64,000 bases of DNA from Candidatus Woesebacteria bacterium RIFCSPHIGHO2_01_FULL_39_32 (GCA_001792345.1 MGGJ01000001.1:48486-112485), one strand, 5' to 3'; numbered from the stretch's first letter, positions 1 through 48,258 are shown. Notes: generated by a model from the sequence alone, not told the origin. Translations and numbers: made by a program.

Positions 1-135
1 TCCACCCGGATGTAAGCTTGTGAAGTATATTATTCCTCCAAGCCAACAACCTTCTGCACCATTTGGACTTATTGCTCCTCCACCGCCACGCTGCACTGGT
101 TGGTAATTGTAATTTTAAATTCTATTGAGTTGTTC

Positions 136-1146: not shown

Positions 1147-1150
1147 ATTT

Positions 1151-2356: not shown

Positions 2357-2419
2357 AGGGAATTAAAATCGGATACATTCGTAGATTAGTATTATATATA
2401 AATGTTATCATGATTAAAC

Positions 2420-4879
2420 ATGGAATTCTTAACCTGGCATTATAGTTATGGAATTGACTACTATATAAAAAGTTGGCTTGGATCTATATTATGGATTCGC
2501 CACTATTTTTCTTTATCTCTTCTTCTTAAAACTCTATTCGCTCCATGGAAACGTCTAGTTGAGACCGACACCTCCCCTGGATTTAACCTTCAAAAGAAGT
2601 TCGAAGTATTTACTTTTAATCTAATTTCTCGAGGAATAGGTGCGTTTGTACGACTAACACTTTTTGGCGCGGGTATCATTCTCGCTTTAATGACTATTTT
2701 TGGTGGAGCCGCCGGTTTTATTTTTTGGTTGACTTTGCCCTTTTTTGGACTTCCTGTCTTTGAAAAATACAAAAGGCAAAAAGAAAATTTTATGCTCGAG
2801 CTGATGTTTCGTATAAAGGAAAGCCACAAGCCTTACTTGGAAGTGATTTTTGATAACGAGGCCGGGTATTTCGTTCTTACACATATAGGTCTTACCCGAG
2901 AAGTACTTTTAGAAAATGCACGACCTGAAAAAATAAGCCTGGAAAAATTTTCCCCCAAATCATACAGAGAAATTATTGAAAAATTACTGGCGGAAAACGT
3001 TTGGAGCAACGAGTTTTTCAATAAGTATGAAGTTAGACCCGAAGACTTTTTATTAGCCGCCCAGTGGTGGGACAAAAAGACAGACGAGGAAACTCAGCTC
3101 GGGGATGGAGTACTGGGGCGACCAGGAATAGCGCTTGAACTTACCTTTGGATATACTCCCACGTTAAACCAGTACTCAGTTGACCTTTCCACACCACAAT
3201 CCTATTCCCACAGACTTATTGGGAGAGGTGACATTGTGAAACGAATGGAGAGAATCTTAAGCTCAGGTAATAATGTACTTATTATGGGACAGCCGGGAGT
3301 TGGTAAGAAAACGGTTATATTGGAGTTTGCTCGAAAAGCCGCAAGTGGTCAATTGGGAACAAAAATGGCTTTTAATAGGGTACTTGAATTTGACTATAAT
3401 TCGCTATTATCGGCAGCAACGGATCTTAACCAGAAAAAGACTAACTTAGCTTTAATTTTAGATGAGGCGGCAGCTGCAGGAAATATTATTTTAATGATTC
3501 GTGATATCCAGCGTTTGACTAATCCGGAAGTTGAAGGCTACGATTTTACTGATATTTTTGAGGAACATTTAGAGAAAAGAGAGTTAAAAATTATTGCGGT
3601 ATCATCAAACACCGAATACGAGCGATTCATTGCTCCAAACCTACGTCTTAGGAAATTTTTGGAAAAGGTGGAAGTTACACCCCCGAAGAAGAGTGAGGCG
3701 ATGGAAATTCTAATTGATGCTGCTAAACGTTGGGAGTCGTTAACTAGTCTAACCATAACCGTTCCCGCTTTAAGAAACATTTTAACCGAGTCTGATAAAT
3801 ACATTACGGAAGTACCATTTCCCGAGAAGGCAATTGAACTTTTGGACGCCGTGATTTCTTACAAAGAACAGGAGGGGGGTAATATCGTTATCGTAGAAGA
3901 TACGAATGCAGTTTTATCCGAAAAAACAGGAATTTCGTTCGCAAAACTTTCCTCAGAGGAGAAAGAACGCTTAAGTCGTCTTGAAGATATCATCCATCAG
4001 CGACTTATCGATCAAGATGCTGCAATTGAACTTATAGGTAAAACTCTTCGGGCAAAGACTGTCGGTATCGTTAAAGAGGAAAGACCACTGGGTTCATTTC
4101 TTTTTCTTGGACCAACTGGTGTTGGCAAAACTGAAACAGCAAAAGTATTAGCGCGAGTTTATTACGGAAGTATTGATGCCATGCTCCGTTTTGATATGGC
4201 GGAATACTCAGGTGTTGAGGGGCTAGAACGTCTAATTGGGTCTGTTTCCAATAACATTCCGGGTGTTTTGACAACGGCAATCAAAAATCGTCCCGCAAGC
4301 CTACTTCTTCTAGATGAAATAGAAAAAGCTTCAAAGGAAATTTCCAACTTATTTTTAGCTCTTCTAGATGAAGGAGTGATTACTGACGCGTTCGGGAAAA
4401 AAATTATGTGCCGACATCTATTTGTAATAGGGACGTCAAACGCCGGAGCCGAATACACTCGACAACTTGTAAGTCGCGAAATTAAAGGCGATGAGTTGCA
4501 GAAAGAAGTTGTAAATCACGTATTGGAAAAGGAAATCTTTTCACCCGAGTTCATCAATCGTTTTGATGGTGTTGTCGTTTACGAACCACTTGGAGAGAAA
4601 GAACTTGTTAAAATCGCACACCTAATGCTTGCGGATCTTTCTCAAAATTTAAGTTTGAAAAACATAACCTTAACAGTTACCGACGAAACGGCACAAAAAT
4701 TAGCCAAAGACGGATTTGATCCCGCATTTGGTGCAAGACCTATGAGAAGAATTGTTAACATAGTTTTGGGAGACTTGATAGGACATGCAATGCTGACTGG
4801 TGAGATAAAAGAGGGTGATAAAATAAGAGTTATTCCAGGGGAAGCAAAAGAAGAATTCAAATTCGAAAAGATTACATAA
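2420..4879 (+). CDS. Hsp100/Clp-family double AAA+ ATPase with N-terminal transmembrane region
   Basis: Two Walker A motifs (GQPGVGKKT, GPTGVGKTE); Walker B ILDE / LLLLDEIEKA; C-terminal GARPMRR D2 small-domain signature; first ~130 aa are hydrophobic helices instead of a Clp N-domain. Confidence 0.6.
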   Translation: MEFLTWHYSYGIDYYIKSWLGSILWIRHYFSLSLLLKTLFAPWKRLVETDTSPGFNLQKKFEVFTFNLISRGIGAFVRLTLFGAGIILALMTIFGGAAGFIFWLTLPFFGLPVFEKYKRQKENFMLELMFRIKESHKPYLEVIFDNEAGYFVLTHIGLTREVLLENARPEKISLEKFSPKSYREIIEKLLAENVWSNEFFNKYEVRPEDFLLAAQWWDKKTDEETQLGDGVLGRPGIALELTFGYTPTLNQYSVDLSTPQSYSHRLIGRGDIVKRMERILSSGNNVLIMGQPGVGKKTVILEFARKAASGQLGTKMAFNRVLEFDYNSLLSAATDLNQKKTNLALILDEAAAAGNIILMIRDIQRLTNPEVEGYDFTDIFEEHLEKRELKIIAVSSNTEYERFIAPNLRLRKFLEKVEVTPPKKSEAMEILIDAAKRWESLTSLTITVPALRNILTESDKYITEVPFPEKAIELLDAVISYKEQEGGNIVIVEDTNAVLSEKTGISFAKLSSEEKERLSRLEDIIHQRLIDQDAAIELIGKTLRAKTVGIVKEERPLGSFLFLGPTGVGKTETAKVLARVYYGSIDAMLRFDMAEYSGVEGLERLIGSVSNNIPGVLTTAIKNRPASLLLLDEIEKASKEISNLFLALLDEGVITDAFGKKIMCRHLFVIGTSNAGAEYTRQLVSREIKGDELQKEVVNHVLEKEIFSPEFINRFDGVVVYEPLGEKELVKIAHLMLADLSQNLSLKNITLTVTDETAQKLAKDGFDPAFGARPMRRIVNIVLGDLIGHAMLTGEIKEGDKIRVIPGEAKEEFKFEKIT

Positions 4880-4882
4880 TCT

Positions 4883-4898
4883 GTGATATTAATCACAT
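4883..4898. promoter_or_regulatory. Perfect CRP-type dyad TGTGA-N6-TCACA
   Basis: tgtgaTATTAAtcaca read directly; 4 nt after the clp stop and ~110-135 nt upstream of the glycogen-synthase-like gene. Confidence 0.35.
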
Positions 4899-5006
4899 AG
4901 GATGTACCGCTGAGATTTACCCTGAGTTTGGCGAAGGGCAAAATTGCCTCTTTTAAAGGTATTGAATCCTCTGCTAATATGGTAGTAATCGGGACAAAGA
5001 TGTTAA

Positions 5007-6215
5007 ATGTACCGCTACCCCCGAGAATTAGTAATGGCTTACAAAGTCCTCATGTTGGGTTGGGAACTGTACCCTTTTAATAGTGGTGGCCTGGGTGAGG
5101 CTTGTTTGGGACTTGCTAATGCTTTATCAAAAAAAGGAATTGATCTAACCTTCGTGCTTCCCAGAAAAGTAGATATAACAGTTGATGGTTTTAGGGTAGT
5201 TTTTGCAGATGTGGATGAAGATATATTAAAAACACTTGGTGCGTATACGACCTCGCCTCTTTGGAGTCATATAATAAACCGCGACGAACTTCCACCGGAT
5301 TTTGTTAGAGCAGCCTTTAAGTATGCCGAGAAAATGAAGAAGTTAGTAAAAAAGCAAAAGGCCGACATTATACATACGCACGATTGGATGACTTATCCTT
5401 CCGGGGTAATGGCAAAGAGCTATCTCAAAAAACCGATGGTGGCACATGTTCACTCAACTGAATATGACCGGACTGGAGGTTATTACCCGAACCCTTACGT
5501 ATATAAAATAGAGAAGGAAGGACTGTTATCTTCCGATAGAGTTTTGCCAGTGGGAGGTTTCATGAAAGAAATTTTGGTAAAAAACTATGGGGTAGACGAG
5601 CAGAAGATAAGAGTGGTATATAACGGGATAAATGAGGATTTTGGAAAGCGTCTTCCTCCAGCGCTAACGAAATTCAAGGAACTTGGGTTTAAAATTGTGC
5701 TTTTCTTGGGAAGAATTACCTTACAAAAAGGTCCTGAATATTTTGTAAGAGCAGCCAAACTGGTTTCTGCCTATAATCCCAAAACTTTGTTTGTTGTCGC
5801 AGGTTCAGGGGATATGGATGGTTATATGATGTCAGAAGCAGCAAGGCTCGGTGTTATGGATAAATTTTTATTTACAGGATTTTTGAGAGGAAATGAAAGA
5901 AATCAAATTTTTCAATCAGCTGACATATTTGTTATGCCTTCGGTTTCCGAACCTTTTGGGATTGTAGCATTAGAGGCAGCTATTTCTGGTACGCCTGTCC
6001 TTGTTTCAAAACAATCTGGAGTAGCGGAAGTAATGAAAAATATTCTTAAAGCAGACTTTTGGGATATCGAAGAAATGGCAAATAAAATTCTTGCAGTACT
6101 AAAGTTTGATGCACTACCTCAGGATTTGAAGTGGGAAAGTGGTAAAGAAGTTAGAAACTTCAGCTGGTCGCGTGCTGCTGATGAGGTAATTAATGTTTAT
6201 GATCAGTTGATTTGA
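5007..6215 (+). CDS. Glycogen/starch synthase-like glycosyltransferase (short archaeal-type GT5/GT4)
   Basis: N-terminal NSGGLGEAxxGLANAL matches the GlgA KTGGLxDVxxALPxAL motif; C-terminal GT-B E-x7-E region (PSVSEPFGIVALEA). Start may be the ATG at 5034 (MAYKVLML). Confidence 0.6.
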   Translation: MYRYPRELVMAYKVLMLGWELYPFNSGGLGEACLGLANALSKKGIDLTFVLPRKVDITVDGFRVVFADVDEDILKTLGAYTTSPLWSHIINRDELPPDFVRAAFKYAEKMKKLVKKQKADIIHTHDWMTYPSGVMAKSYLKKPMVAHVHSTEYDRTGGYYPNPYVYKIEKEGLLSSDRVLPVGGFMKEILVKNYGVDEQKIRVVYNGINEDFGKRLPPALTKFKELGFKIVLFLGRITLQKGPEYFVRAAKLVSAYNPKTLFVVAGSGDMDGYMMSEAARLGVMDKFLFTGFLRGNERNQIFQSADIFVMPSVSEPFGIVALEAAISGTPVLVSKQSGVAEVMKNILKADFWDIEEMANKILAVLKFDALPQDLKWESGKEVRNFSWSRAADEVINVYDQLI

Positions 6216-21036: not shown

Positions 21037-21210
21037 ATGACATCAACAAACCTCTCTAGACAAAAAATATCTCATTCAGTTGTTGAAGAGATAACCTCGG
21101 CACTGAAAAGCGTTAGGCATTTTGGTAGCGTAGAAATTTACATCCAAAAGGGAGTTGTAACTCAGATCACAGTCAGAAACATCAAAAAGACAAATAGTAA
21201 GATCAAATAG
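21037..21210 (+). CDS. Small YezD-like (DUF2292-like) protein, 57 aa; absent from the ORF track
   Basis: ATG 3 nt after the upstream stop; MTSTNLSRQKISHSVVEEITSALKSVRHFGSVEIYIQKGVVTQITVRNIKKTNSKIK; the FGSVEIxIQxGVVTQI core matches the remembered YezD pattern. Confidence 0.4.
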   Translation: MTSTNLSRQKISHSVVEEITSALKSVRHFGSVEIYIQKGVVTQITVRNIKKTNSKIK

Positions 21211-21331
21211 ATTGTATTTCTTCAAATTACACAATACCTATTTTAATACCAAAAGGGTTTAATGTTGTCTATTAGGAATAAAACTATAATTATTTGCTTA
21301 TATAGGGATTATAGTTTGATAAGAGAACCTA

Positions 21332-21360
21332 TTGACAAAGCTAAGTAAGATTGTTATATA
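21332..21360 (+). promoter_or_regulatory. Sigma-70-like promoter (TTGACA-17-TATATA with TGn extended -10)
   Basis: ttgacaAAGCTAAGTAAGATTGTtatata read directly; AT-rich UP-like region upstream. Confidence 0.5.
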
Positions 21361-21368
21361 TATTTATG

Positions 21369-21391
21369 TAGGTTAGTTAATTACTAACCTA
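21369..21391. promoter_or_regulatory. Perfect inverted repeat TAGGTTAGT-N5-ACTAACCTA (candidate operator at +9..+31)
   Basis: 9-bp perfect arms read directly, immediately downstream of the -10 element. Confidence 0.4.
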
Positions 21392-21440
21392 TAAATAAAA
21401 CGAGTGAGCTGCCCCAATAATTTACTCGATATATTTATAG

Positions 21441-21600
21441 TATTGAGAGCTGACCGCAAACGGAGGCTCTCCGGTTTGAACTTATCCGCCAGCTGGCGGA
21501 GTCGAATCGGGGCGCCTCCGTTTTCGTTTGAAAACGGGCGATTAAGGTGAAGTGCCTTTCTCGACAATAGTCGGGAGGACCATTAAAGAAAGGGGGTGAA
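21441..21600 (+). promoter_or_regulatory. GC-rich structured 5' leader (riboswitch/attenuator-like, unclassified) of the repeat-protein operon
   Basis: A 13-bp long-range helix (21455-21467 with 21514-21526) encloses a three-way junction (hairpin 21485-21500 CCGCC-AGCU-GGCGG; CUCCG/CGGGG helix). An alternative hairpin 21519-21536 (CGUUUUC-GUUU-GAAAACG) reuses the 3' strand of the long helix. SD GGGGGTG lies 10 nt before the ATG at 21609. Confidence 0.45.
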
Positions 21601-21608
21601 ATGAAAAT

Positions 21609-22859
21609 ATGACAGATTTACAGAAAAAATTTGCATCTGCTGTTGCGGCAGGGACGTTACTTCTGAACCTCGTTACCCCGGCTTTTGCTGGTTACACTTT
21701 TGAAGTATCCGGAAACGGATCCGACTCTGAAAGCGAAGTTAAATTCGAACAAAAGAATGAAGTCAAAGTTGATCAGCAAAACTGGGCTGAGGTTCTTAAC
21801 GATGTCAAAGTTAAAGCCAATACGGGCGACAACGAAGCCAATGATAATACCGGCGGCAAGGTAGAAATAGAAACTGGCGATTCTGAAACTAATGTTTCGG
21901 TTTCAAACGTTTTGAACTCTAATGTTGCAAAGGTAGACGCGTGTTGTGTCAAAAATGTCGAAGCTAAAATTTCCGGCAACGGTTCTGATTCTGAAAATGA
22001 AATCGAACTCGAACTGGAAAATGAAGTGAAACTAAATCAGTACAACAATGCTGTAGTTTTAAACTACGTTGAAACAAAGTCAGAGACTGGAGATAACGAG
22101 GCTGAAGACAACACCAACGGCGACGTATCTATCAAAACAGGCAATGCCAAAACGACCGTAGCTGTTTCAACCGCAGCTAACTCCAATTCTGCTTGGATTT
22201 CAGGTGGAAGCGGGGGCGGCGGCAGTCTTTCTGCGATAATTTCCGGCAACGGTTCTGATTCTGAAAATGAAATCGAACTCGAACTGGAAAATGAGGTTGA
22301 GCTCGATCAGCAAAACTGGGCTGCAATTCTCAATGACGTTGAGGTTGAATCCGAAACTGGAGACAACGAGGCAGAAGACAATACAGGCGGCGAGGTTGAG
22401 ATAGAGACAGGCGATGCCGAAGCCGATGTTACTGTTGACAATATGGTCAACTTTAACTGGGCAGATATTGATGCCTGTGGATGCATCGAAGATATTTTGG
22501 CCAAAATTTCAGGCAATGGTACAGACTCAGAAAATGAGATAGAGGCCGAGCTTGAAAGTGAGTTGGAAGTTGATCAGTACAACGACTTTGACTGTAAAGG
22601 CGAGTTTAAAGATGCATGTGCAGAAGTTGATGTTGAACTGGAAACTGGAGACAATGAAGCTGAGGACAACACACTTGGCGGAGATGATCCAGCCATTGAT
22701 ACTGGTGACGCCGATGCTGGAGTACATGTCAGCAATACCGGCAACTCTAACGTTTTTGGCGCAGCTCCCGAATTAGATTGGGAAATGCCATGGGGATTTG
22801 ATTTCAATTTCAACTTTTCGTTTGATTTGGAAGATCTCCTAGCAGCTCTTTTGGGCTAA
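21609..22859 (+). CDS. Secreted acidic repeat protein 1 (four ~90-aa SGNGSDSEN...TGDNEAEDNTGG..I.TGDA...CC repeats)
   Basis: Signal peptide ending AFA; 4 tandem repeats; Cys pairs; pI strongly acidic; no recognised family. Confidence 0.7.
   Translation: MTDLQKKFASAVAAGTLLLNLVTPAFAGYTFEVSGNGSDSESEVKFEQKNEVKVDQQNWAEVLNDVKVKANTGDNEANDNTGGKVEIETGDSETNVSVSNVLNSNVAKVDACCVKNVEAKISGNGSDSENEIELELENEVKLNQYNNAVVLNYVETKSETGDNEAEDNTNGDVSIKTGNAKTTVAVSTAANSNSAWISGGSGGGGSLSAIISGNGSDSENEIELELENEVELDQQNWAAILNDVEVESETGDNEAEDNTGGEVEIETGDAEADVTVDNMVNFNWADIDACGCIEDILAKISGNGTDSENEIEAELESELEVDQYNDFDCKGEFKDACAEVDVELETGDNEAEDNTLGGDDPAIDTGDADAGVHVSNTGNSNVFGAAPELDWEMPWGFDFNFNFSFDLEDLLAALLG
21968..22294 (+). repeat. 57-nt perfect intragenic direct repeat (21968-22024 and 22238-22294) inside repeat protein 1
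   Basis: Identical DNA aatttccggcaacggttctgattctgaaaatgaaatcgaactcgaactggaaaatga at both positions. Confidence 0.8.
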
Positions 22860-22949
22860 GCCAACCTAAGGGAAACGGGCTGGTCTGCTAGCACTTCGGC
22901 GGACCACCCGGAACCCAAAGGAAAAGATAAAAGTTATTACATATAAAAA

Positions 22950-25259
22950 ATGTCTGCCCTAGTAAAAGAATTTGAAGAAATCGAAATACGATTAATAAAT
23001 GAGTCAATATATAGTGGTTTTTTTGACAGAATATTAAACCAAGCAAAAACAATTCTTGAAAAGGTGAAAAATAGATTAAATATAATGAACAATAAAGTAA
23101 ATAAAGCAAAAAATTTTGTAGCAGTTTTAATGGTCGTATTGGTTTTATTTGTATATAATCAATACTCTTTCGTTTTAGCACAAACTGCTCCTGAACCACC
23201 TGCTCCACCATCTGCTCCCGAGGCACCGTCTGCACCCTCTGCTCCCGAATCCCCATCTGACAACAATTGGGAAAGTGAAAATCAGGGCGGTGGGGATGAG
23301 GAAAACCATCGTAGATATAGAGACGACGACGAGGAAGACGAAAATGAAAACACTCAGTCCGAAACCACGAACCATCCAAGTCCTACTACAGAGAGTAGTG
23401 GAAATGAAGATGGTAGCGGTAATGTTGGAGATACCCAAATAACTACTGGTGATGCAGTAAATGATGCAGGAATTACAACTTCAGCAAACGAGAATTATTC
23501 AGGAAGTTCTTTACTTCCACAAAATAGTGGAGGTGGAGCTTCGGTATCAAATAAAGATAACGGATCCGGCTCGACTAATTCTGGGTCGGTGAGTTTAACA
23601 AACGACGATACTACTCAACAAACCAATAGCACAGTTGTTGGAAATAATCTTTGGCAGGAAACTGAAACAGGGGACAATTCGGCCTCAAGGAATGTTGGAA
23701 ACTCCACGATAAATACAGGCGATGCAAATACAACAGGGACAATAATTACTTCGGTTAATACAAACATAGATGGTTTGCTAGTAAATGAATTTAATGTCGC
23801 CGATGATCATGTAGGAGACATTATTTTAGATTTCGGGAGTTGTATTTTTGGATGCGCTCCTGGTGATTTAACGGCGCAAAATTCTGGGAATGGTACGGGA
23901 TCAAATAACCAGGCAGAGATTGATTCAAACGTTGATAGTTTTACTTTTCAAAATAATGACGCGGTTGTTGAAAATAATATGACTCTTTCTTCTGATTCAG
24001 GACATAATGACGCTGATAGAAATACCGGCGGAGATTCAGAAATTGTAACTGGAGATGCAAATGTATCTGCAAACGCTTTAACATTTGCCAACAATAATAT
24101 TTCCGGCAACGTAATCTACTCGGTAGTAAATATATTTGGAAAATTAATTGGCGACATCCTACTACCGGAAGGATTTTGCTGTTTCAATACAGTTTCTGCA
24201 GAAAATTCTGGAAATGGTTCTGAATCGCTAAACATTGCAGATATTAATCTAACAAACACCGATTTAACTTACCAATTTAATGCAGCCGATATTCAGAATA
24301 ACCTTATTTTATATGCGAACACAGGAGAAAACGATACAAGTAAAAATACAGGTGGTACATCCTCTATAAAAACAGGTTCGGCGAGCGCAAAAGCACAGGT
24401 TGTTAATGTTGCCAATACCAATATTGATGGTGGGGATTGGTGGTTAGTTATTGTAAACGAAGCAGGTAATTGGGTAGGTAAAATTATCGGAGCACCGCTG
24501 GGTTCATTATTTGGCGGGTCCGAAGGTTTTGTATTTGGAGTTTCTGATTCTGGTGAAATAACAGCGACCAATTCAGGTAATGGTTCAGATTCCCAGAACA
24601 CTTCTGGAGTTAGTCAGCAGACTTCAAATACTACGATTCAAAATAACGATGCCACCATTGTTAATAACCTTGATCTTTCTGCAAATACGGGAGCAAACTC
24701 TGCTAGTAGAAATACCGGTGGGGATTCCACAATAAAAACCGGCGATGCCAATATAATCGCAAACTTAGTTAATTTTGTAAATAATAACATTGTGGGAACA
24801 GGTAAACTTTTTGTAACCGTCGTAAACGTATTCGGAAGTTGGTTAGGTGATTTTGTTGGTCCTGGTATGGTAAAAGAGAATGATAATAATAGCCAGCAAG
24901 CGTTGGGTGGTCCAGCGCCTTCTCAAGAAAGTAGTGTAGGCGGCAACGGTAATAGTCAGAGTAAAAGCAGTACGGTGGCAAATGTATCTTTAACACAAAA
25001 TCCACTGCCATCTAGTTCGACACCAGATTCATCGGAGAATTACATTCTTGGGATCTTGAATACTTCAGATGTTGGAGTTTCAGGAGGAGAGGGAGAAGGA
25101 GAAATTGCGGTGGTAGCCGGAACAAATACTCTCAGTCAGGACTCAACTCAGGGTAAAAAGGTTGTTAAAATCAATCTTGCCTGGTTATTGTTCGGAATAC
25201 CAATGGTTGCTTTATACCTAATTCGACGCAAAAGGCTTAATGCTGATCACACTGCCTAA
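22950..25259 (+). CDS. Secreted/anchored repeat protein 2 (paralogue with NSGNGS...NTGGDS.IKTGDAN... repeats, C-terminal TM anchor)
   Basis: Alternative start at 23085 (MNNKV.. then a hydrophobic signal); Pro-rich APEPPAPPSAPE stalk; ≥4 repeats; C-terminal hydrophobic helix plus RRKR. Confidence 0.65.
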   Translation: MSALVKEFEEIEIRLINESIYSGFFDRILNQAKTILEKVKNRLNIMNNKVNKAKNFVAVLMVVLVLFVYNQYSFVLAQTAPEPPAPPSAPEAPSAPSAPESPSDNNWESENQGGGDEENHRRYRDDDEEDENENTQSETTNHPSPTTESSGNEDGSGNVGDTQITTGDAVNDAGITTSANENYSGSSLLPQNSGGGASVSNKDNGSGSTNSGSVSLTNDDTTQQTNSTVVGNNLWQETETGDNSASRNVGNSTINTGDANTTGTIITSVNTNIDGLLVNEFNVADDHVGDIILDFGSCIFGCAPGDLTAQNSGNGTGSNNQAEIDSNVDSFTFQNNDAVVENNMTLSSDSGHNDADRNTGGDSEIVTGDANVSANALTFANNNISGNVIYSVVNIFGKLIGDILLPEGFCCFNTVSAENSGNGSESLNIADINLTNTDLTYQFNAADIQNNLILYANTGENDTSKNTGGTSSIKTGSASAKAQVVNVANTNIDGGDWWLVIVNEAGNWVGKIIGAPLGSLFGGSEGFVFGVSDSGEITATNSGNGSDSQNTSGVSQQTSNTTIQNNDATIVNNLDLSANTGANSASRNTGGDSTIKTGDANIIANLVNFVNNNIVGTGKLFVTVVNVFGSWLGDFVGPGMVKENDNNSQQALGGPAPSQESSVGGNGNSQSKSSTVANVSLTQNPLPSSSTPDSSENYILGILNTSDVGVSGGEGEGEIAVVAGTNTLSQDSTQGKKVVKINLAWLLFGIPMVALYLIRRKRLNADHTA

Positions 25260-25267
25260 ATTGATGA

Positions 25268-26452
25268 ATGACCAAGTTTAAGGCAGAAATTAAAAACAGA
25301 TTCTTCTTTTTAATAAGCTTGCTGTCTATTTTGACCTATCTTTTTTTACCGACAGTACAAGCTGATGAATTAGTGATTACAGATAATGGTTCCGGTTCTA
25401 CTAACGAAGTTCAAGTTCAATCCGAAAGTCAAACAAATATTAACCAAAACAATGAGAGCAATGTTACAAATGAAGTCAATACCTCTGTAAATACCGGCGA
25501 TAATTCTGCGTCTGGCAATACAAATGGGGATGTTGCTATTACAACTGGTGATAGTAACACTCAGATTACTATAGAAAATACCGCAAACACATCTACAGTT
25601 GAGACTCGATGTTGTACTTCTGGGACCACTGCACAAATTTCTGGCAATGGCGCTAATTCAACCAATCAGATTAATACTTCTTCTACTTCAACAACAAATA
25701 TCATAGTTTATCAGAATGCTACCATTACTAATAATATTACTGGATACGTAAATACTGGTAATAATAGCGCCGATGACAATGCTGGTGGGAATGTAGAAAT
25801 AACAACAGGGAACATAAAGGTTCAAGGAAATATTATAAACGGCCCAATAAACTATTCTAATATTGAAACCGCTTTCGGCCTTGCTAGTTTTGTGTCTAAG
25901 ATTTCAGATAATGGTACGAATTCTGAAAACAAAATAAATGTAAATTTTGATTACCAAAGAAACATTAACACCAATTTTAACGCGGATTTAGATAATTACG
26001 TTACATGGGACCTAAATACCGGAGGTAATTCTGCAGATGGAAATACTGAGGGTGATGTGACTATAAATACGGGAGATATATCGCTTGACTTCTTTATTAA
26101 AAATTTTGTAAATCTTGGAAAAGTAGAAGTATCTTGTTGTCCTACTAAAAAAGAGAAAGAGGAGGAAAAACCACCCCCCGGAGTACCACCATATGAAGAA
26201 GAAAAGGAAAATGGTGGGGTGAGTGGTGGAGTTGGTGGAGGCGGTGGCGGTGGTGGTGGCGGGGGAGGAGGTCAAATACTACCAGAAGCTGCAGCGGTAG
26301 AAGCGGGAGGACCAGGAATCGATGGATTATCTGTTACTTCCGGTAGTGGATTTCAATCTCTATTATTCTTCATCGGTCTTGCTATGGTCACATTTGGTGG
26401 TAAAATTGCTACCAATGAACTTTTCCAAAATACTTCAGAAAGGAAAAAGTAA
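25268..26452 (+). CDS. Secreted repeat protein 3 (paralogue; poly-Gly tract; LPEAA/LSVTSG segment, TM and basic tail at C-terminus)
   Basis: Signal peptide ..TVQA; repeats ISGNGANS...NTGNNSADDNAGGNVEITTGN; CC pairs; a 20-residue Gly tract; C-terminal hydrophobic helix plus ERKK. Confidence 0.65.
   Translation: MTKFKAEIKNRFFFLISLLSILTYLFLPTVQADELVITDNGSGSTNEVQVQSESQTNINQNNESNVTNEVNTSVNTGDNSASGNTNGDVAITTGDSNTQITIENTANTSTVETRCCTSGTTAQISGNGANSTNQINTSSTSTTNIIVYQNATITNNITGYVNTGNNSADDNAGGNVEITTGNIKVQGNIINGPINYSNIETAFGLASFVSKISDNGTNSENKINVNFDYQRNINTNFNADLDNYVTWDLNTGGNSADGNTEGDVTINTGDISLDFFIKNFVNLGKVEVSCCPTKKEKEEEKPPPGVPPYEEEKENGGVSGGVGGGGGGGGGGGGGQILPEAAAVEAGGPGIDGLSVTSGSGFQSLLFFIGLAMVTFGGKIATNELFQNTSERKK
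26211..26272 (+). repeat. GGN-codon homopolymeric Gly tract (low-complexity DNA, slippage-prone)
   Basis: ggtggaggcggtggcggtggtggtggcgggggaggagg encodes GGGGGGGGGGGGGG. Confidence 0.7.
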
Positions 26453-27011
26453 GTCTAAAAAGGATAAAACATCTCCATTAAGACTCGCACTTGGATTAAC
26501 CTTGGTTTTGATCGGTCTAGTTATTATTTTAGGAAGAGACAATCTTCCTACTATATATAGTACAAGTTTTGAGAGCGAACCGGTTAAAATAGAAGGTTTA
26601 TCGTTTAGTGAATTAAAAGAAGAGAAAATACCAAAACGGATAGTGATTCCTCAAATTTTTACCGATCTGGAAGTAAAAAAGTCAAATATAGTTGGAGGTT
26701 ACTGGGAAGTTTTTGAGGACACGGCGGGATGGGGAATTGGATCTGGTATACCTGGGGAAAAAGGCAATCAAGTAATATTTGCACACGCGAAAGAGGGTCT
26801 TTTTTTACCACTTCGATCAATTAAAGTAGGCAGTCAAATTTATGTCCTTACCGATTCTGACTGGTATAAATATGAAATTAAAGAAATAAAAGAAGTTTAT
26901 CCTAATCAGGTAGAGGTAATTGCTCCGACAGAAGACGAGACTTTGACGCTGTACACCTGCTCTGGTTTTGCCGATACAAAACGCCTTATAGTCGTTGCAA
27001 AACCTTCTTGA
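26415..27011 (+). CDS. Sortase-family transpeptidase
   Basis: TM anchor; VIFAHAKEG (catalytic His region); TLYTCSGF (TLxTC catalytic Cys motif); ORF-track start at 26322 overlaps the upstream gene, so the ATG at 26415 is preferred. Confidence 0.65.
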   Translation: MNFSKILQKGKSKSKKDKTSPLRLALGLTLVLIGLVIILGRDNLPTIYSTSFESEPVKIEGLSFSELKEEKIPKRIVIPQIFTDLEVKKSNIVGGYWEVFEDTAGWGIGSGIPGEKGNQVIFAHAKEGLFLPLRSIKVGSQIYVLTDSDWYKYEIKEIKEVYPNQVEVIAPTEDETLTLYTCSGFADTKRLIVVAKPS

Positions 27012-27055: not shown

Positions 27056-28036
27056 ATGGATTTTGCTTTTGAGCTGCGTCATTATTTTTTTCCAGGACAT
27101 TCGAATAATCATAAAGCTAAGATTCTTCATTCGACCAGCCTTTTATTAATTGCATTGTTTCTAATTACATATCAGGTAATTTTAGGGGTTTTCCCCCTAA
27201 CTGGAGTAAAAATCTTGGGTTATGCGGCAAACATACCACCAGACACGATTATTTCTTTAACAAATCAAAAACGCGTAGAAGCTGGAGTGCCGGCCTTAAT
27301 TAACAGTGCCCAACTTTCTCAAGCTGCACAATTAAAGGGACAACATATGATAGCACTAGACTATTGGGCGCATGTTGCTCCGGATGGAACCGAACCTTGG
27401 AAGTTTTTCAGCGACGTTGGTTATAAATATCGCTACGCTGGTGAAAATTTGGCTCGAGATTTTTCTAACCCGCAAGATGCTATAAACGCCTGGATATCTT
27501 CGCCCTCTCATAAAGATAATATGCTCTCTACTAAATATAAAGAAATCGGTGTAGCTGTAGTGGAAGGAGATTTGGGTGGTGTTGACACAACAATAATTGT
27601 TCAACTTTTTGGAACACAGTTAACAGATACTGCTCCAGAGCTTCCTATTGCTGAAGCAAAACCTGTAGTTACTGTGGTTCCTTCTCCGACCCAAGCACAA
27701 AAACCTACTTTAACTCCAACCCTTACATTAACACCAACATTAATACCGGTAATTGTTCAAACTTCCCCGGCGCTTCAACCCGGAAATATAAATCCGGAAG
27801 GTGTTCCAGCACGGCAGAGTGCAAATACCTTTCAAATTTTGATATCCCCATTTGAAAGTACTCGGGGGGTTGCTATTACTACGACTTTACTACTATTAAT
27901 AGTAATGACAGTTGATGGGTTAATTGTTGCAAGAAGGAAAATTCCAAGACTTTCCGGAAGAACATTCGCTCATATAGCGTTTTTGGGAATGATATTAGCA
28001 ATACTTTTAATAGCAAAAGCTGGAAAGATACTATAA
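27056..28036 (+). CDS. CAP/SCP (PR-1-like, YkwD-type) domain protein with Pro/Thr linker and C-terminal TM anchor
   Basis: GENLARDF..AWISSPSHKDNML..YKEIGVAVV matches the CAP domain; PTLTPTLTLTP linker; C-terminal TM. Confidence 0.6.
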   Translation: MDFAFELRHYFFPGHSNNHKAKILHSTSLLLIALFLITYQVILGVFPLTGVKILGYAANIPPDTIISLTNQKRVEAGVPALINSAQLSQAAQLKGQHMIALDYWAHVAPDGTEPWKFFSDVGYKYRYAGENLARDFSNPQDAINAWISSPSHKDNMLSTKYKEIGVAVVEGDLGGVDTTIIVQLFGTQLTDTAPELPIAEAKPVVTVVPSPTQAQKPTLTPTLTLTPTLIPVIVQTSPALQPGNINPEGVPARQSANTFQILISPFESTRGVAITTTLLLLIVMTVDGLIVARRKIPRLSGRTFAHIAFLGMILAILLIAKAGKIL

Positions 28037-28078
28037 TTTAGTAGTTAGTTATGAGTAGTGAGTAGTTAGTAAAAAGAT

Positions 28079-28339
28079 ATGAGAAGAATTACAAGACATT
28101 TACAACACTATTTACCTTTATTGGGGATACTTGGTGCCGGCTTGGTTGGATTTACCGTATTTTCTTATGATACTAATTTCCAGATGGCACTACTTTTCGC
28201 AACAGCCTTGGGTTACGTTTCTTGGGGAATCGTTCATCACTACATTCATGGAGATTTACACACGTCTATCATTTTGGAGTATATAGTTATTGCTCTTTTG
28301 GGTGTCGTAATCGTATCTTCAATTCTTCTCAGAGTTTGA
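28079..28339 (+). CDS. Small membrane protein (3 TM), hypothetical
   Basis: 86 aa, hydrophobic. Confidence 0.3.
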   Translation: MRRITRHLQHYLPLLGILGAGLVGFTVFSYDTNFQMALLFATALGYVSWGIVHHYIHGDLHTSIILEYIVIALLGVVIVSSILLRV

Positions 28340-36224: not shown

Positions 36225-39200
36225 ATGCCCAAACTAGATGTAGTTATACCTGCTCATAACGAATCCGATAATATTATTGAATTATTGGTAAGGCTCGAAA
36301 GAGCGCTATTTAATGCTGGAATAAAATACAACATTTTTGTTGTTGATAATCGCTCTTCTGACGGAACTGATGAAAGGGTAAAAGAATACATAAATAGTTC
36401 GAATTCTTCGTCGATAAAACTCTTGTACAAAAAAGATAAACAGGGAAAGGCATATGCAATTCTGGAAGGTACACATTACGGTAAAGCGCCCTATATAGCC
36501 ATGATTGATGGAGATCTTCAGTATCCCCCGGAAGTGTTACCTGAGATGTTTAAACTTGTTAAAAAATTTGGGGTCGTTGTGGCAAACAGAAAAAAGAATG
36601 GTGCTGGATTTTTAAGAAAAATAGGCACCAGGCTTAACAGATACATCTTCGAGAAAAAACTTTTGGGTTTGAATTGTGATACGCAATCAGGCCTGAAGGT
36701 TTTTAAGCGAGAGATTATACGTTATTTACATGAGGCTGATGTAAAACCATGGTCTATAGATATGCCTCTCTTGGTTACCGCTAGGCGCCTTGGCTACAAA
36801 ATTGCAACCGTCGATATCGAATTTGCCAAGAGAAAATCAGGTTTATCAAAGGTTAGTTTTCTAAAAACAGGTTTTCAGATAGCGACAACTGCAATCTCAC
36901 TAAAACTTTCAGAAAAAAAACCATTTAAAGTATTACCCAAAAACGAACGTTCACCAATCGGAGCTGGGGTAGTTTACAAAGGTCGAAGGTTTACTACCCA
37001 CACAAACCTTCCATTCTCGGAGACTGCTTTGAAGACCCTTAATATTCGTCAGAAATTATTACTGGGTGCAGTAGTTTTACTACTAACTGCTGGTCTTTTT
37101 ATAAACGCGAAGGGTACCGTGATTATACTCATAGCACTTCTATCCGCACTGTATTTTTTGGATTTTATTTTTACAACTTTTATTCTTCTTAGGAGTTTGT
37201 CTAAGAATATCGAAATTAAATTTTCGAAAAAGTCATTGGGACAGTTAAATGACAAAAGTCTTCCCAAATACAGCATTTTGTGTCCGCTTTACAAAGAGGC
37301 TAACGTATTACCTGACTTTGTAAAAGCAATAAATAATTTAGACTGGCCAAAGGATAAGCTTGACGTTATTTTGCTCCTTGAAGAAAACGATAAAGAAACA
37401 CAAAAGGCTGCGGAAAACCTTTCCGATCAGAGTCATTTTAGAGTACTCGTGGTACCCCATTCTCTTCCTAAGACTAAACCTAAAGCTTGCAATTACGGTT
37501 TAGCGTTTGCAAAGGGAGAATATGTAGTTGTCTATGATGCAGAGGATAGACCCGATCCGATGCAACTGAAAAAAGCATACATTGGTTTTAAAAGATCCGC
37601 CTCAAAAGTCGTTTGTCTACAATCAAAACTGAATTACTACAATCCGGATCAAAATTTTTTAACAAAGCTTTTTACAGCAGAATATTCATTATGGTTTGAT
37701 TTGATCTTACCTGGACTTCAGTCGGTGAAAACCATAATCCCGCTTGGTGGGACAAGCAATCATTTTAAACTTTTCGTTTTAAGAGATTTAGGAGGTTGGG
37801 ACGCTTTTAATGTTACAGAGGATTGTGAATTGGGGACGCGCCTTTTTAGAAAGGGTTTTACAACGGCAATAATTGATTCTACGACTTATGAAGAAGCAAA
37901 TAGCAAGGTCAAAAGTTGGTTAAAACAACGTTCACGTTGGATTAAAGGGTATCTGCAAACTTATTTCGTTCACACAAGACATCCTCTTAGTTTTGTTGTT
38001 GATCATGGGGTCCAGGCATTTATATTCCAACTAGTTATTGGAATGCGGATGATCTTCATCATGATAAACCCCATTCTTTGGCTAGTTACTATTTCTTATT
38101 TTATGTTTAGGCCGACTCTTGGGTTAACAATTGAATCTTTATATCCAACACCAATTTTTTATATGGCGGTTTTTCCTATGATCTTTGGGAATTTTCTTTA
38201 CCTTTATAACTACATGATAGCCTTAGCAAAAAGAGAAAAGTGGTACCTAATAAAATACGTTTATTTAGTTCCTTTTTACTGGGTAATGGTGAGTTTTGCG
38301 TCATTTATCGCACTCTATCAGTTGATTGTTAAACCTCACTATTGGGAAAAGACAGAACATGGGTTTCATCTTGCACCAAAGAAAAAAGAATCTAAGTCAC
38401 CAGGGCTTGCTATTTCCTTATCTATTCCTTCCCTGCAAGAATCTTTTTTTGATTCGGTAAGAAATTTACTGAAGAAGGAAAACTTTGCTTTGGGAGCAAT
38501 TTTACTAATTATTTCTTCCGGTTTAGTAAATTTTATTGACTTTCTTTATAACGCGTATCTGGGAAGAAAATTAGAAATTGTGGAGTTTGGAAACGTAGCA
38601 CTCCTTGGAAATTTCATAACAATTGCTGGAATTTTAACAAGCGCCCTAATGAGAGTTACAACCCATAAGGCAAGTTACTTCTTTGGGAAACATAACGCTC
38701 CGGCCAAGGAATTTTGGAGAAGAATTAAGAAGTGGGTTTGGTTCGGATCTTTGGCAGCAACGTTTGTCTGGGTTATTTCTATCCCGTCATTAGGAAATTA
38801 TTTTAATATCGGTGGCTTAATGCAGTTTGTTCTCTTCACTCCGTTTTGGACAGTTGGTTTTCTGGCCGGACTAAATATAGGCTTTTTAGGAGGAAACTTT
38901 AAATTTAGTGTGATTGCATTAATTTCATTTGTTGAAGTACTTACAAAATTACTTATTGCTGTAGTTACAGTAGAAATGGGATATCCCTCACTCGTTTATA
39001 TTTCTTTACCAATCTCAGTAGTTATTGCGTTTTTCATTAGTTACATCGTCATTTCCAGGATGCAGGATGCGAAGGATTACAAAGATAAAGAAAGCGACCT
39101 AACTTTCCCGCGCGGATTTTTCCTTGCATCCTTACTAACCAATGTGTCGATAGTTGCCTTTTTATCAATCGATGTTGTACTTGCAAAACATTATCTTTCT

Positions 39201-40931
39201 CCCGTCGAGGCCGGGAATTATGCGCTTTTATCTTTGTCAGGGAAAATCATTTATTTTTTGGGCGGTCTTTTTATTCAGTTTGTAAATCCTCTTATTAGTA
39301 GACAGGAAGGTCAAGGAAGAGTATCCCGTAGAACTTTTTACCTTTTATTTATCAGTTCTTCGACTGTTAGCTTAATGGGTTATGTGGGAATTGGACTATT
39401 CGGTAAGGTAACGATGCCTCTACTTTTTGGAGATAAAGCTAATGCAATTCTTCCTATTCTGCCGTTATATGGACTTGGTATTGCCGCATATTCTATAGCT
39501 AGCTTTTTTACCATCTACCATCAAGTCAGAAAACACTATATTTTCTCGGTACTTGCAATTCTAGTTTCGGCTGCACAGATATTTTATATCGCTCTATTCC
39601 ATTCTTCTACCGAAATGATTGCTATGGTTACAACATTGACGGGAATAGGATTTCTAATCTACTCAATTATTCTTCACCTGTCATATAAGCAGTTAACTAG
39701 CATCTCGAATAACATTTTGGACTTCTTTGATCTCTTCGGTCCATCAGCTCCTATATCTTCGGATAAAATTAAAATCCTCATTTTCAACTGGAGGGACGTA
39801 AAACATGTTTGGGCCGGAGGGTCAGAAATTTATATTCACGAGATTGCAAAGCGTTGGGTCAGAAAAGGTCATCAGGTAACTCTATTTTGTGGAAATGACG
39901 GTAAAAACAAAAGAGAAGAAAAAGTTGCGGGAGTTAAAGTAATTAGAAGGGGTGGATTTTATACAGTCTATTTATGGGCTTTTTTATACTATATTTTTCG
40001 GTTTAGAAAAAAGTTTGGTGTAGTAATCGATTGTGAGAATGGGATACCCTTTTTCACTCCTTTATATGTGAAGGAACCGCATGTTTTATTAATGCATCAT
40101 GTACACAAAGATATTATTTTGAAGGAAATGAAACTTCCAAAATTGCTTCTTCCGGTCGCTTTTGTGACAAAGAAGCTTGAGGAAGTACTGATGCCAGTAT
40201 TGTATAGAAAGTCAAGGATTATAGCTGTTTCTAAATCTACGAAAGATGACTTAGAAAAAATTGGTTTGGGAACAAAGGAAAAAATATCCGTCGTAAACCC
40301 TGGTGTCGAATTGGAGAAATTCAAAGTTGGGAAGAAAACTGCCTACCCCTCAATCCTTTATTTGGGAAGATTAAAGCAATACAAGTCTATCGACACTATT
40401 ATTAAGGCAATGCCTACGGTTTTAGCCAAACATCCAAGTGCAATTCTACATATTGCAGGTTTTGGCGAAGCGTATAGATACTTAGAAAAGTTGGCACGAA
40501 AACTATTACCCGATAAAAGTTTCATGTTTTGGGGAAAAGTAAGCGATGGAGTTAGGGCAAAACTTATGAGTTCTTCCTGGGTATTTGTTTACCCTTCGAC
40601 AATGGAAGGTTGGGGAATTTCTGTAATTGAAGCAAATGCTTGCGGGACTCCTGTTGTGGCCTCAAATGTTCCGGGATTGCGTGACTCTGTAAAAAATCCA
40701 TCAAGCGGGTTTCTAGTTGCTCCGAAAAATAGCGACGAATTTGCAGAAAAAATAAATCTGATTCTCTCGGATATAAGGTTAAGGACTACTTTATCAAAAG
40801 AAAGTCTTAAATGGGCAACTGGATTCACTTGGGACAAAAGCGCCGAGGAATTTATGAAAGTTTTAATTGATACCATAGCTATTGGAGAGGGTTATTCGTT
40901 GATGCCGAATGCCAGTTTATCAAAACAGTGA
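36225..40931 (+). CDS. 1568-aa multidomain glycan-synthesis protein: GT2 (DPM1-like) - TM - GT2 (processive, QxxRW) - MOP/Wzx-like flippase - GT4
   Basis: aa 1-230: VVIPAHNESDNI, DGD (DxD); aa 340-600: DAEDRPD, TED, QRSRW (nt ~37926) flanked by TM helices; aa ~730-1130: >10 TM helices with AGNYALLSLSGK (Wzx G.Y motif); aa ~1150-1568: GT4 with EGWGISVIEANACGTPVVAS; continuous ORF, no internal stop. Confidence 0.7.
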   Translation: MPKLDVVIPAHNESDNIIELLVRLERALFNAGIKYNIFVVDNRSSDGTDERVKEYINSSNSSSIKLLYKKDKQGKAYAILEGTHYGKAPYIAMIDGDLQYPPEVLPEMFKLVKKFGVVVANRKKNGAGFLRKIGTRLNRYIFEKKLLGLNCDTQSGLKVFKREIIRYLHEADVKPWSIDMPLLVTARRLGYKIATVDIEFAKRKSGLSKVSFLKTGFQIATTAISLKLSEKKPFKVLPKNERSPIGAGVVYKGRRFTTHTNLPFSETALKTLNIRQKLLLGAVVLLLTAGLFINAKGTVIILIALLSALYFLDFIFTTFILLRSLSKNIEIKFSKKSLGQLNDKSLPKYSILCPLYKEANVLPDFVKAINNLDWPKDKLDVILLLEENDKETQKAAENLSDQSHFRVLVVPHSLPKTKPKACNYGLAFAKGEYVVVYDAEDRPDPMQLKKAYIGFKRSASKVVCLQSKLNYYNPDQNFLTKLFTAEYSLWFDLILPGLQSVKTIIPLGGTSNHFKLFVLRDLGGWDAFNVTEDCELGTRLFRKGFTTAIIDSTTYEEANSKVKSWLKQRSRWIKGYLQTYFVHTRHPLSFVVDHGVQAFIFQLVIGMRMIFIMINPILWLVTISYFMFRPTLGLTIESLYPTPIFYMAVFPMIFGNFLYLYNYMIALAKREKWYLIKYVYLVPFYWVMVSFASFIALYQLIVKPHYWEKTEHGFHLAPKKKESKSPGLAISLSIPSLQESFFDSVRNLLKKENFALGAILLIISSGLVNFIDFLYNAYLGRKLEIVEFGNVALLGNFITIAGILTSALMRVTTHKASYFFGKHNAPAKEFWRRIKKWVWFGSLAATFVWVISIPSLGNYFNIGGLMQFVLFTPFWTVGFLAGLNIGFLGGNFKFSVIALISFVEVLTKLLIAVVTVEMGYPSLVYISLPISVVIAFFISYIVISRMQDAKDYKDKESDLTFPRGFFLASLLTNVSIVAFLSIDVVLAKHYLSPVEAGNYALLSLSGKIIYFLGGLFIQFVNPLISRQEGQGRVSRRTFYLLFISSSTVSLMGYVGIGLFGKVTMPLLFGDKANAILPILPLYGLGIAAYSIASFFTIYHQVRKHYIFSVLAILVSAAQIFYIALFHSSTEMIAMVTTLTGIGFLIYSIILHLSYKQLTSISNNILDFFDLFGPSAPISSDKIKILIFNWRDVKHVWAGGSEIYIHEIAKRWVRKGHQVTLFCGNDGKNKREEKVAGVKVIRRGGFYTVYLWAFLYYIFRFRKKFGVVIDCENGIPFFTPLYVKEPHVLLMHHVHKDIILKEMKLPKLLLPVAFVTKKLEEVLMPVLYRKSRIIAVSKSTKDDLEKIGLGTKEKISVVNPGVELEKFKVGKKTAYPSILYLGRLKQYKSIDTIIKAMPTVLAKHPSAILHIAGFGEAYRYLEKLARKLLPDKSFMFWGKVSDGVRAKLMSSSWVFVYPSTMEGWGISVIEANACGTPVVASNVPGLRDSVKNPSSGFLVAPKNSDEFAEKINLILSDIRLRTTLSKESLKWATGFTWDKSAEEFMKVLIDTIAIGEGYSLMPNASLSKQ

Positions 40932-46645: not shown

Positions 46646-46647
46646 TT

Positions 46648-48252: not shown

Positions 48253-48258
48253 TCTACT

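Follow-up and report, generated by a model that had tools for sequence, protein, structure and literature searches.

A conserved Microgenomates gene cluster encoding secreted module proteins and a sortase, preceded by a candidate cis-regulatory leader RNA

The DNA considered here is a stretch of 64,000 nucleotides (nt) from Candidatus Woesebacteria bacterium RIFCSPHIGHO2_01_FULL_39_32 (GCA_001792345.1, MGGJ01000001.1:48486-112485), hereafter the window, in which a promoter and a leader of ~240 nt are followed by three open reading frames (ORF1, ORF2 and ORF3) for secreted proteins built from one common module and by the gene for a sortase (Table 1). Judged by sequence comparison, this cluster is real and almost universal in the Microgenomates. 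Its best reading, to which we assign a probability of about one half, is that of a core envelope operon building an abundant, wall-anchored, acidic surface layer or fiber, the major subunit of which would be gated by a terminator-type leader.

The module proteins of the cluster

The scan of related loci took one genome per species, returned 155 relatives and kept 80 loci, all of which belong to Microgenomates classes (Woese-, Gottesman-, Levy-, Davies-, Curtiss-, Roizman- and Chisholmbacteria). In 80+ loci, the order of the two upstream membrane protein genes (154 and 255 amino acids (aa) in the window), a DUF2292 gene that may be missing, the leader, ORF1, ORF2, ORF3 and the sortase gene is almost invariant, with a gap of 270-430 nt between the DUF2292 gene and ORF1. 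The single unit of promoter, leader, three paralogues and sortase that had been claimed in a preliminary description of this DNA is thus borne out by a gene order conserved across every Microgenomates class sampled; overall, the features of that description were recovered at or near the places where it put them, and its interpretation is borne out in part. The sortase gene, which had been taken to close the unit, is the last of the four ORFs, but the cluster has no clean end there, because many relatives carry genes for a CAP-domain protein and an 86-aa protein behind it, and synteny extends to three genes upstream as well.

The 11 modules of ORF1, ORF2 and ORF3 align over ~85 residues with ten invariant positions (N8, G9, S12, G45, N47, N52, I59, T61, G62 and N75), which reproduces the shared motif of ~90 residues noticed earlier. 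A hidden Markov model of the module finds four copies in ORF1, four and one weak copy in ORF2 and three in ORF3, and none in the other ORFs of the window. The cysteine pairs that had been placed at the module ends are present (residues 112/113 and 290/292 in ORF1, 298/302 and 410/411 in ORF2, and 115/116 and 290/291 in ORF3), but those of ORF1 follow modules 1 and 3 and not each module. Similarly, the extreme acidity attributed to all three proteins holds for ORF1 and ORF2, in which aspartate and glutamate outnumber lysine and arginine by 94 to 18 and 89 to 33, respectively, whereas ORF3 is only mildly to moderately acidic (42 to 20).

The preliminary description had recognized no named domain in these proteins, and neither Pfam nor NCBIfam gave a match to ORF1-3. 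Sequence and profile searches of the PDB with ORF1, A1 and A5 were empty, nine of the largest relatives contain no Pfam domain, and no known S-layer or SLH-type domain was found in the module proteins; no well-characterized family in Pfam, NCBIfam or the PDB sequences therefore accounts for the module. An exhaustive profile search with the window modules yielded 3,297 cluster representatives, 814 of them at E <= 1e-30, and two main architectures prevail in the family, one of ~410 aa with four modules and one of ~750 aa with five; when the 85-aa module was used in a word-indexed profile search, just 3 fragments emerged, which were uninformative. ORF1 has hundreds of homologues of similar length, all annotated as 'hypothetical', the named ones coming from Woesebacteria, Gottesmanbacteria, Amesbacteria and other Patescibacteria. 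The AlphaFold model of ORF1 is a beta-solenoid (pLDDT, 79), one of the two folds (beta-solenoid or immunoglobulin-like) that had been expected. The module proteins are a new, large and unannotated family that would be used in a known way, namely, as far as this model can be relied on, as a sortase-anchored secreted beta-helix.

A predicted repetitive solenoid would also be shared with a curli-like functional amyloid or other extracellular fiber, in which ORF1 modules would stack end to end after nucleation on the anchored ORF2 and ORF3. However, Foldseek E-values were merely 0.02, with TM scores below 0.1; an hhalign comparison of the module profile with a manually entered Escherichia coli CsgA sequence gave a probability of 0.2%; and no match to Curlin_rpt of Pfam was obtained, the module being ~85 and not ~22 aa long. 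A fiber of this kind is quite unlikely.

The ORFs for three secreted proteins of 416, 769 and 394 aa exist as described earlier, but ORF2 probably begins at M46 (23085), because its homologues open with a plain signal peptide that is followed by a PAPS-rich linker. Read directly, the ORF1 sequence begins with a signal peptide of the A-x-A type (AFA followed by G), ends in a soluble tail and contains no anchor; signal peptides are found in essentially all of its homologues, and its identity across class-level lineages is 45-58%. Of 72 ORF2 homologues, 59 carry a juxtamembrane N[LFI]AW motif, behind which come a membrane helix and then a basic tail. ORF2 also has a hydrophobic insert after each of three modules (G.V.YSVVNIFGKLIGD, GGDWWLVIVNEAGNWVGKIIG and GKLFVTVVNVFGSWLGDFVG), which is missing from ORF1 and ORF3 and may serve in docking or lie close to the membrane. 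Two tandem repeats of the DNA that keep the reading frame, one at 23178-23259 encoding the (P-A/S-A-P) linker of ORF2 and the other at 26223-26272 encoding a run of 13 glycines in the linker of ORF3, are likely to be length-variable spacers.

The C-terminus of ORF3 in the window consists of ILPEAAAVEAGGPGIDGLSVTSG, a helix and ERKK. At the position of ORF3, the related loci encode a protein with LPx[TS]G (31/56) or with an L[AS]xT[SG]-like motif (20/56), followed by a helix and a basic tail, and no anchor model of NCBIfam or Pfam matched ORF3 itself. The sortase-type or anchor-type ends reported for two of the proteins are thus those of ORF2 and ORF3, the orthologues of the latter carrying the canonical LPxTG, and ORF3 is a predicted sortase substrate. 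The start of the adjacent sortase at 26415 is probable because the homologues span 165-220 aa. This protein matches Sortase of Pfam (PF04203; 7e-23, 81.1 bits against a cut-off of 26.6) and TIGR01076 (47.9 against 39.35), and its 198-aa form contains the catalytic residues His124 (in FAHA), Cys182 (in TLYTC) and Arg190. None of the NCBIfam sortase classes A-F was reached at its cut-off; the best score was that of class E (46 bits against 160), and C, D and F were far below.

Three paralogous secreted proteins followed by a dedicated sortase are also the arrangement of a sortase-polymerized pilus of the Gram-positive type with major and minor pilins, and L003 does have, near the cluster, a distinct SpaA-type locus that includes a sortase of its own. 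Nevertheless, ORF1, which would probably be the major subunit, lacks a sorting signal and terminates in a soluble tail (FNFSFDL...LLG), Pfam showed no domain of the SpaA, Cna-B or pilin kind, and the sortase scores 41 bits where class C requires 160. Such a pilus is very improbable.

Table 1. Features of the cluster and its surroundings; positions are those of the window unless a locus is named.
Feature	Position	Strand	Remarks
Upstream neighbor, 154 aa	19648..20112	+	N-terminal membrane helix; no Pfam match; homologue in most related loci
Upstream neighbor, <=255 aa	20266..21033	+	One membrane helix; no Pfam or NCBIfam match; before the leader in nearly every locus
DUF2292 (YezD-like) protein	21037..21210	+	57 aa; PF10055, 31.8 bits (cut-off 22)
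Sigma-70-type promoter, TTGACA-17-TATATA	21332..21360	+	Sole site in 64 kb; 0 expected (shuffles)
Perfect 9+9 inverted repeat, 5-nt spacer	21369..21391	+	Predicted transcript 5' end
Second leader hairpin	21389..21440	+	17-nt arms (88%); encloses CUGCCCC (21409-21415)
Near-invariant core of leader RNA, CUGACCGCAAACGGAGGC	21450..21467	+	Single match in the window; conserved block in alignments A2 and A4
P1, 22-bp hairpin	21458..21523	+	21458-21480 pairing with 21501-21523; GC-rich base invariant, upper stem covarying
U-run after P1 (GUUUUCGUUUG) and P2 hairpin (CCGUUUUC/GAAAACGG)	21520..21537	+	P2 overlaps the P1 3' arm; terminator-like site in terminator scan
Two small hairpins	21544..21576	+	First with conserved GAAGUG (21549-21554) in its loop
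Shine-Dalgarno sequence, GGGGGUGA	21592..21599	+	9 nt 5' of ATG
ORF1, secreted, anchorless, very acidic	21609..22859	+	416 aa; four modules; conserved C-terminal FNFSFDLxDLL
Stable hairpin after ORF1 stop	22865..22921	+	-31 kcal/mol; GC-rich; no U-run
ORF2	22950..25259	+	769 aa; signal peptide, Pro-rich PAPS linker, acidic stretch, 4-5 modules, INLAW, membrane helix, RRKR
ORF2 hydrophobic inserts	24050-24110, 24440-24500, 24800-24860		Residues ~387-410, ~497-520, ~617-640
ORF3	25268..26452	+	394 aa; signal peptide, 3 modules, Gly-rich linker, ILPEAAA...GLSVTSG, membrane helix, ERKK
Membrane-anchored sortase	26415..27011	+	ORF opens at 26322; 198 aa from likely start 26415
CAP/YkwD-domain membrane protein (27056-28036) and 86-aa membrane protein (28079-28339)	27056..28339	+	Frequently syntenic followers
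Two-module paralogue (other loci)	L003 11755-12529; L032 2670-3453; L037 12004-12731	-; +; -	

The promoter and the leader RNA

The strong promoter of the preliminary description stands, being the only one of its kind in the window (Table 1). Its sequence is invariant across 8 close relatives, and a promoter scoring at least 10/12 lies 15-136 nt 5' of the RNA motif described below in 66 of 71 loci, the -35 element being almost always a perfect TTGACA. The perfect palindrome reported behind it also exists, but it occupies about +2 to +25, if transcription is assumed to start ~7 nt past the -10 element, and not +9 to +31. This inverted repeat is kept in L084, L086 and L087 with altered sequence and altered spacer or loop length; it is confined to the close lineage of the window and is missing where the -10 element stands 15-20 nt before the core motif. 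Because the repeat persists while its sequence and loop length change, the palindrome is probably a hairpin at the 5' end of the RNA. Its lineage restriction and covarying arms rule it out as the main regulatory operator, which disposes of the operator-like character ascribed to it; the conserved, putatively regulatory part is the GC-rich element, previously called merely 'structured'.

That element is indeed GC-rich and structured. The GC content of 21444-21609 is 0.52, against ~0.37-0.40 in the window, and the leader (21366-21610) has a folding energy of -95 kcal/mol (z = -6.8 against shuffles). In the 5' to 3' direction, the aligned leaders consist of the near-invariant AGCUGACCGCAAACGGAGGCU, the variable top of a hairpin, GCCUCCGUUUU with further U residues, a variable hairpin, the GAAGUG hairpin loop, another hairpin and AAAGG(A/G)GGUGA. 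Of 86 loci, 73 contain the 16-nt sequence GACCGCAAACGGAGGC with no more than 3 substitutions. The P1 hairpin is supported by covariation: 94.6% of the cells are paired, double-change cells number 94 against 30 +/- 5 in shuffles, and the covariation score of 0.52 exceeds that of slid partners, which is 0.17 at most. Some lineages have compensatory changes in the base of P1 (GGAGGU/ACCUCC and GGAGAU/AUCUCC). The following U-run has 7 or more U among 9 nt in 67 of 73 leaders, GAAGTG lies 3' of the P1 3' arm in 48 loci, and GG(A/G)GGUGA stands ahead of the ORF1 start in nearly all loci. In the minimum free energy fold, CUGCCCC (21409-21415) pairs with the Shine-Dalgarno (SD) sequence (21592-21599). 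The CUGCC(C/U) block is kept in Woesebacteria-like relatives, GCCC going with a GGGGG SD sequence and GCCU with GGAGG, a joint change that may be one single evolutionary event.

The motif is tied to the module family. With the window leader as query, nhmmer matched the region immediately 5' of ORF1 in more than 45 loci, and a covariance model of the motif matched upstream of ORF1 in ~72 of 85 sources, with one match in the window. Extra copies precede the genes for small two-module paralogues (52-55 bits in L003 and L032, ~31 bits in L037), so that the paralogue has its own leader RNA copy in at least L003 and L032. Weak matches of ~30-35 bits (E ~1e-3 to 7e-3) at L025 6626-6789, L029 6642-6801 and L043 6660-6797 suggest a second copy of the motif 5' of the main one. 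A 16-mer scan of metagenomes gave 120 matches, 37 of them with the complete hairpin; an ORF1 homologue lies downstream of the complete motif in every case with enough flanking DNA, and 5 more matches that fail the strict test of the 3' arm also precede an ORF1 homologue. The remaining matches, mostly without the CU/CC prefix and without an ORF1-like gene, look like chance. Among the loci and the complete metagenomic motifs with flanks, the leader motif was therefore seen solely ahead of module-family genes. No Rfam family matched the window at its gathering score, and the plus strand of 21200-21700 was empty at E values up to 10. Taken together, comparative evidence makes the leader a conserved RNA motif new to Rfam and a candidate cis-regulatory RNA of a known general type.

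Two other explanations of the leader were rejected. P1 is not a mere terminator of the upstream DUF2292 gene, because a consensus promoter sits between the two in 66 of 71 loci, which also places P1 and its U-run inside the 5' untranslated region. A leader peptide after the internal GGAGG was discarded as well, since the TTG-initiated frame of 24 codons in the window stops early in L051.

Action of the leader and role of the cluster

Lying between promoter and gene, the leader has the anatomy of an intrinsic terminator, a GC-rich stem followed by a U-run. By analogy, its layout would be that of a factor-dependent attenuator, as the 5' arm of P1 overlaps the invariant 18-nt sequence. The 3' arm of P1 (CCGUUUU) is able to pair either with an upstream AAACGG in P1 or with a downstream AAACGG in P2 (21518-21537), and 26 of 74 leaders have the downstream AAACGG where 2.5 would be expected. 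In addition, the 5' flank can pair with a CUCUC-type segment right after GGAGG to form a putative antiterminator helix, P0, for which several distinct complementary pairs are seen. Because the arms of P1 correspond to an SD mimic (GGAGG) and an anti-SD sequence (CCUCC), masking at the level of translation may occur as well. The leader may act by attenuation, by control of translation or by stabilization alone.

In the proposed mechanism, the sigma-70 consensus promoter would drive the leader, with its core CUGACCGCAAACGGAGGC, the 22-bp P1 and the U-run, and a factor, more likely a protein or an RNA than a small ligand, would decide whether the polymerase reads through P1. Alternatively, the factor would control whether the CCUCC arm can mask the ribosome-binding site (RBS); either route would set the output of ORF1. 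ORF1, with its consensus RBS, signal peptide and very acidic beta-solenoid of four modules but no anchor, would be the abundant outer subunit, and ORF2 and ORF3, which share its module, could pair with it module to module. ORF3 would be cleaved at LPxTG or L[AS]xT[SG] by the adjacent sortase, which would link it to the wall, whereas ORF2 would be held by INLAW, the membrane helix and the basic tail. The product would be an acidic surface layer or fiber anchored in both wall and membrane. Co-transcription from ORF1 to the sortase gene is suggested by spacing, namely the 8-nt gap between ORF2 and ORF3 and the overlap of ORF3 with the sortase gene.

The same proteins might instead serve an episymbiotic cell of the Candidate Phyla Radiation (CPR) as host-attachment adhesins, that is, as sortase-anchored beta-helical stalks with a host-binding surface. 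Adhesins are usually variable and patchy, however, and here architecture and gene order are fixed throughout the superphylum at ~50% identity; moreover, the strongest expression signals sit on the anchorless ORF1. Host attachment is accordingly considered unlikely. A core structural role is preferred over a variable adhesin because the cluster is near-universal in the superphylum and of fixed architecture, and because a consensus promoter and RBS on an anchorless subunit are combined with two anchored paralogues and a dedicated sortase.

Several points weigh against a gated surface-layer operon. We infer the abundance and surface location of ORF1 from its expression and export signals alone, and its conservation would be unusually high for an S-layer protein. 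The antiterminator helix P0 is weakly supported: 69% of its positions are paired against 65% in shuffles, a slide of +2 scores equally, and a positive permutation test is confounded by relatedness. The 22-bp hairpin could be a pure stabilizer of the messenger RNA, in which case P1 would be no switch but a constitutive 5' stabilizing or processing stem of a very abundant transcript; such stems are known for S-layer and cry3A (STAB-SD) transcripts. The position of the -10 element just 15-20 nt before the motif in many lineages, which makes P1 5'-proximal, the additional 5'-terminal hairpin of the window lineage, the GGAGG inside the motif and the weak backing for P0 all speak for this explanation of the leader. 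On the other hand, a stabilizer would need neither the invariant 18-nt sequence nor the U-run, and the order AAACGG, CCGUUU, AAACGG permits alternative pairing, so that pure stabilization is possible but somewhat doubtful. The hairpin that follows the stop codon of ORF1 shows weak conservation in L051, L017, L018 and L021; it could be a 3' stabilizer or a partial barrier to read-through that sets the ratio of ORF1 to ORF2, and ORF2 to the sortase gene may therefore be transcribed at another level or separately. Finally, the sorting signal of ORF3 is degenerate in the lineage of the window itself (LSVTS or LPEAA), which makes cleavage by the sortase less certain here.

A more far-reaching version of the gated surface-layer operon combines two proposals: that the leader is a new riboregulator confined to the Microgenomates, in which the 18-nt loop gates a built-in terminator through a protein, RNA or ligand and so couples synthesis of the main surface beta-solenoid to the state of the envelope, and that INLAW with its helix and basic tail is a new sorting signal for the unclassified sortase or for another enzyme. 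Both together are decidedly doubtful; if true, they would define the long-unidentified surface layer of the ultra-small bacteria of the OP11 type. Cryo-electron microscopy of ultra-small groundwater cells, including OP11, by Luef and colleagues in 2015 reportedly revealed a distinct surface layer, for which the present operon is a candidate. To our knowledge, the Microgenomates are a very large and almost entirely uncultured group whose envelope proteins are wholly uncharacterized. The system had been thought undescribed, and we likewise found no paper on the operon or the leader; the literature on S-layers and sortase substrates of CPR bacteria offered general remarks only.

The cluster ranks among the most conserved lineage-specific loci of the Microgenomates. 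It supplies concrete candidates for a surface structure, a secreted subunit, two anchors and a sortase, together with a testable variant of a sorting signal and a compact conserved RNA element (~160 nt, outside Rfam) that can be assayed in vitro. Because heterologous expression is possible, the architecture and regulation of the CPR envelope are opened to experiment.

Surroundings of the cluster and comparison with known systems

Among the neighboring genes, that for the 255-aa protein probably has an internal true start, and its counterparts in the relatives encode membrane proteins of roughly 200-250 aa. The DUF2292 frame of the window is shorter than the default length limit for ORFs; genes for DUF2292 proteins of 58-67 aa lie at the matching position in L003, L084, L086 and L087, and a role of this protein in leader regulation is conceivable. 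The two-module paralogue of ~200 aa found in many relatives, often on the opposite strand after the sortase gene, is not present in the window; its second module is lysine-rich, and CGC or CCC stands between its modules. In L003, a locus from Gottesmanbacteria, a SpaA-type protein of 1,840 aa and its own sortase are encoded just upstream of the cluster (1-5296), and such organisms therefore run at least two sortase systems. Dozens of the records of metagenome-assembled genomes among L004-L083 are titled 'uncultured Gammaproteobacteria', 'Pseudomonadales' or 'Nanoarchaeia archaeon', which look like default or wrong taxonomic labels. Elsewhere in the window (36225-40931 and 45116-49560, plus strand), a 1,568-aa GT2-GT2-GT4 glycosyltransferase fusion, another GT4 protein and a polysaccharide deacetylase are encoded, followed by three ORFs of 430-530 aa without a Pfam match; this region is probably an envelope polysaccharide locus.

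In its anchoring parts, the system resembles the LPXTG wall proteins of Gram-positive bacteria and their housekeeping or dedicated sortases, with which it shares the signal peptide, the motif, helix and basic tail of ORF3 (LPx[TS]G in the majority of its orthologues, as given above) and an adjacent membrane-anchored sortase with a His-Cys-Arg triad. It differs from them in that the passenger is an unannotated module of predicted beta-solenoid fold, the motif in the window is LSVTS or LPEAA, the sortase stays below every class cut-off, ORF2 relies on the unrelated INLAW motif and the presumed major subunit, ORF1, has no anchor. Curli CsgA/CsgB, FapC, the TpsA adhesins (EtpA/FHA) and the RTX S-layer protein RsaA likewise are acidic, secreted, repetitive beta-solenoids with Asn/Gln/Gly ladders, as predicted for the module proteins, and combine a secreted subunit with anchored paralogues. 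However, no sequence or profile similarity to them was found, the 85-aa module has cysteine pairs, and the organism is a monoderm with no genes of curli, Fap or two-partner secretion in the cluster.

Leaders of the RAT/LicT, T-box and LoaP/EAR types are similarly composed of a promoter, a short invariant sequence that extends into the 5' arm of a hairpin rich in GC, a long U-run and an RBS. Unlike these, the leader of the window has no Rfam match and a weakly supported antiterminator helix, no gene for a PRD protein, a NusG paralogue or another antiterminator was identified here, and the motif contains an SD/anti-SD pair that possibly acts on translation. Nevertheless, just as processive antitermination of the LoaP or EAR type serves operons for surface polymers, the leader described here appears to serve a single family of envelope-building genes.

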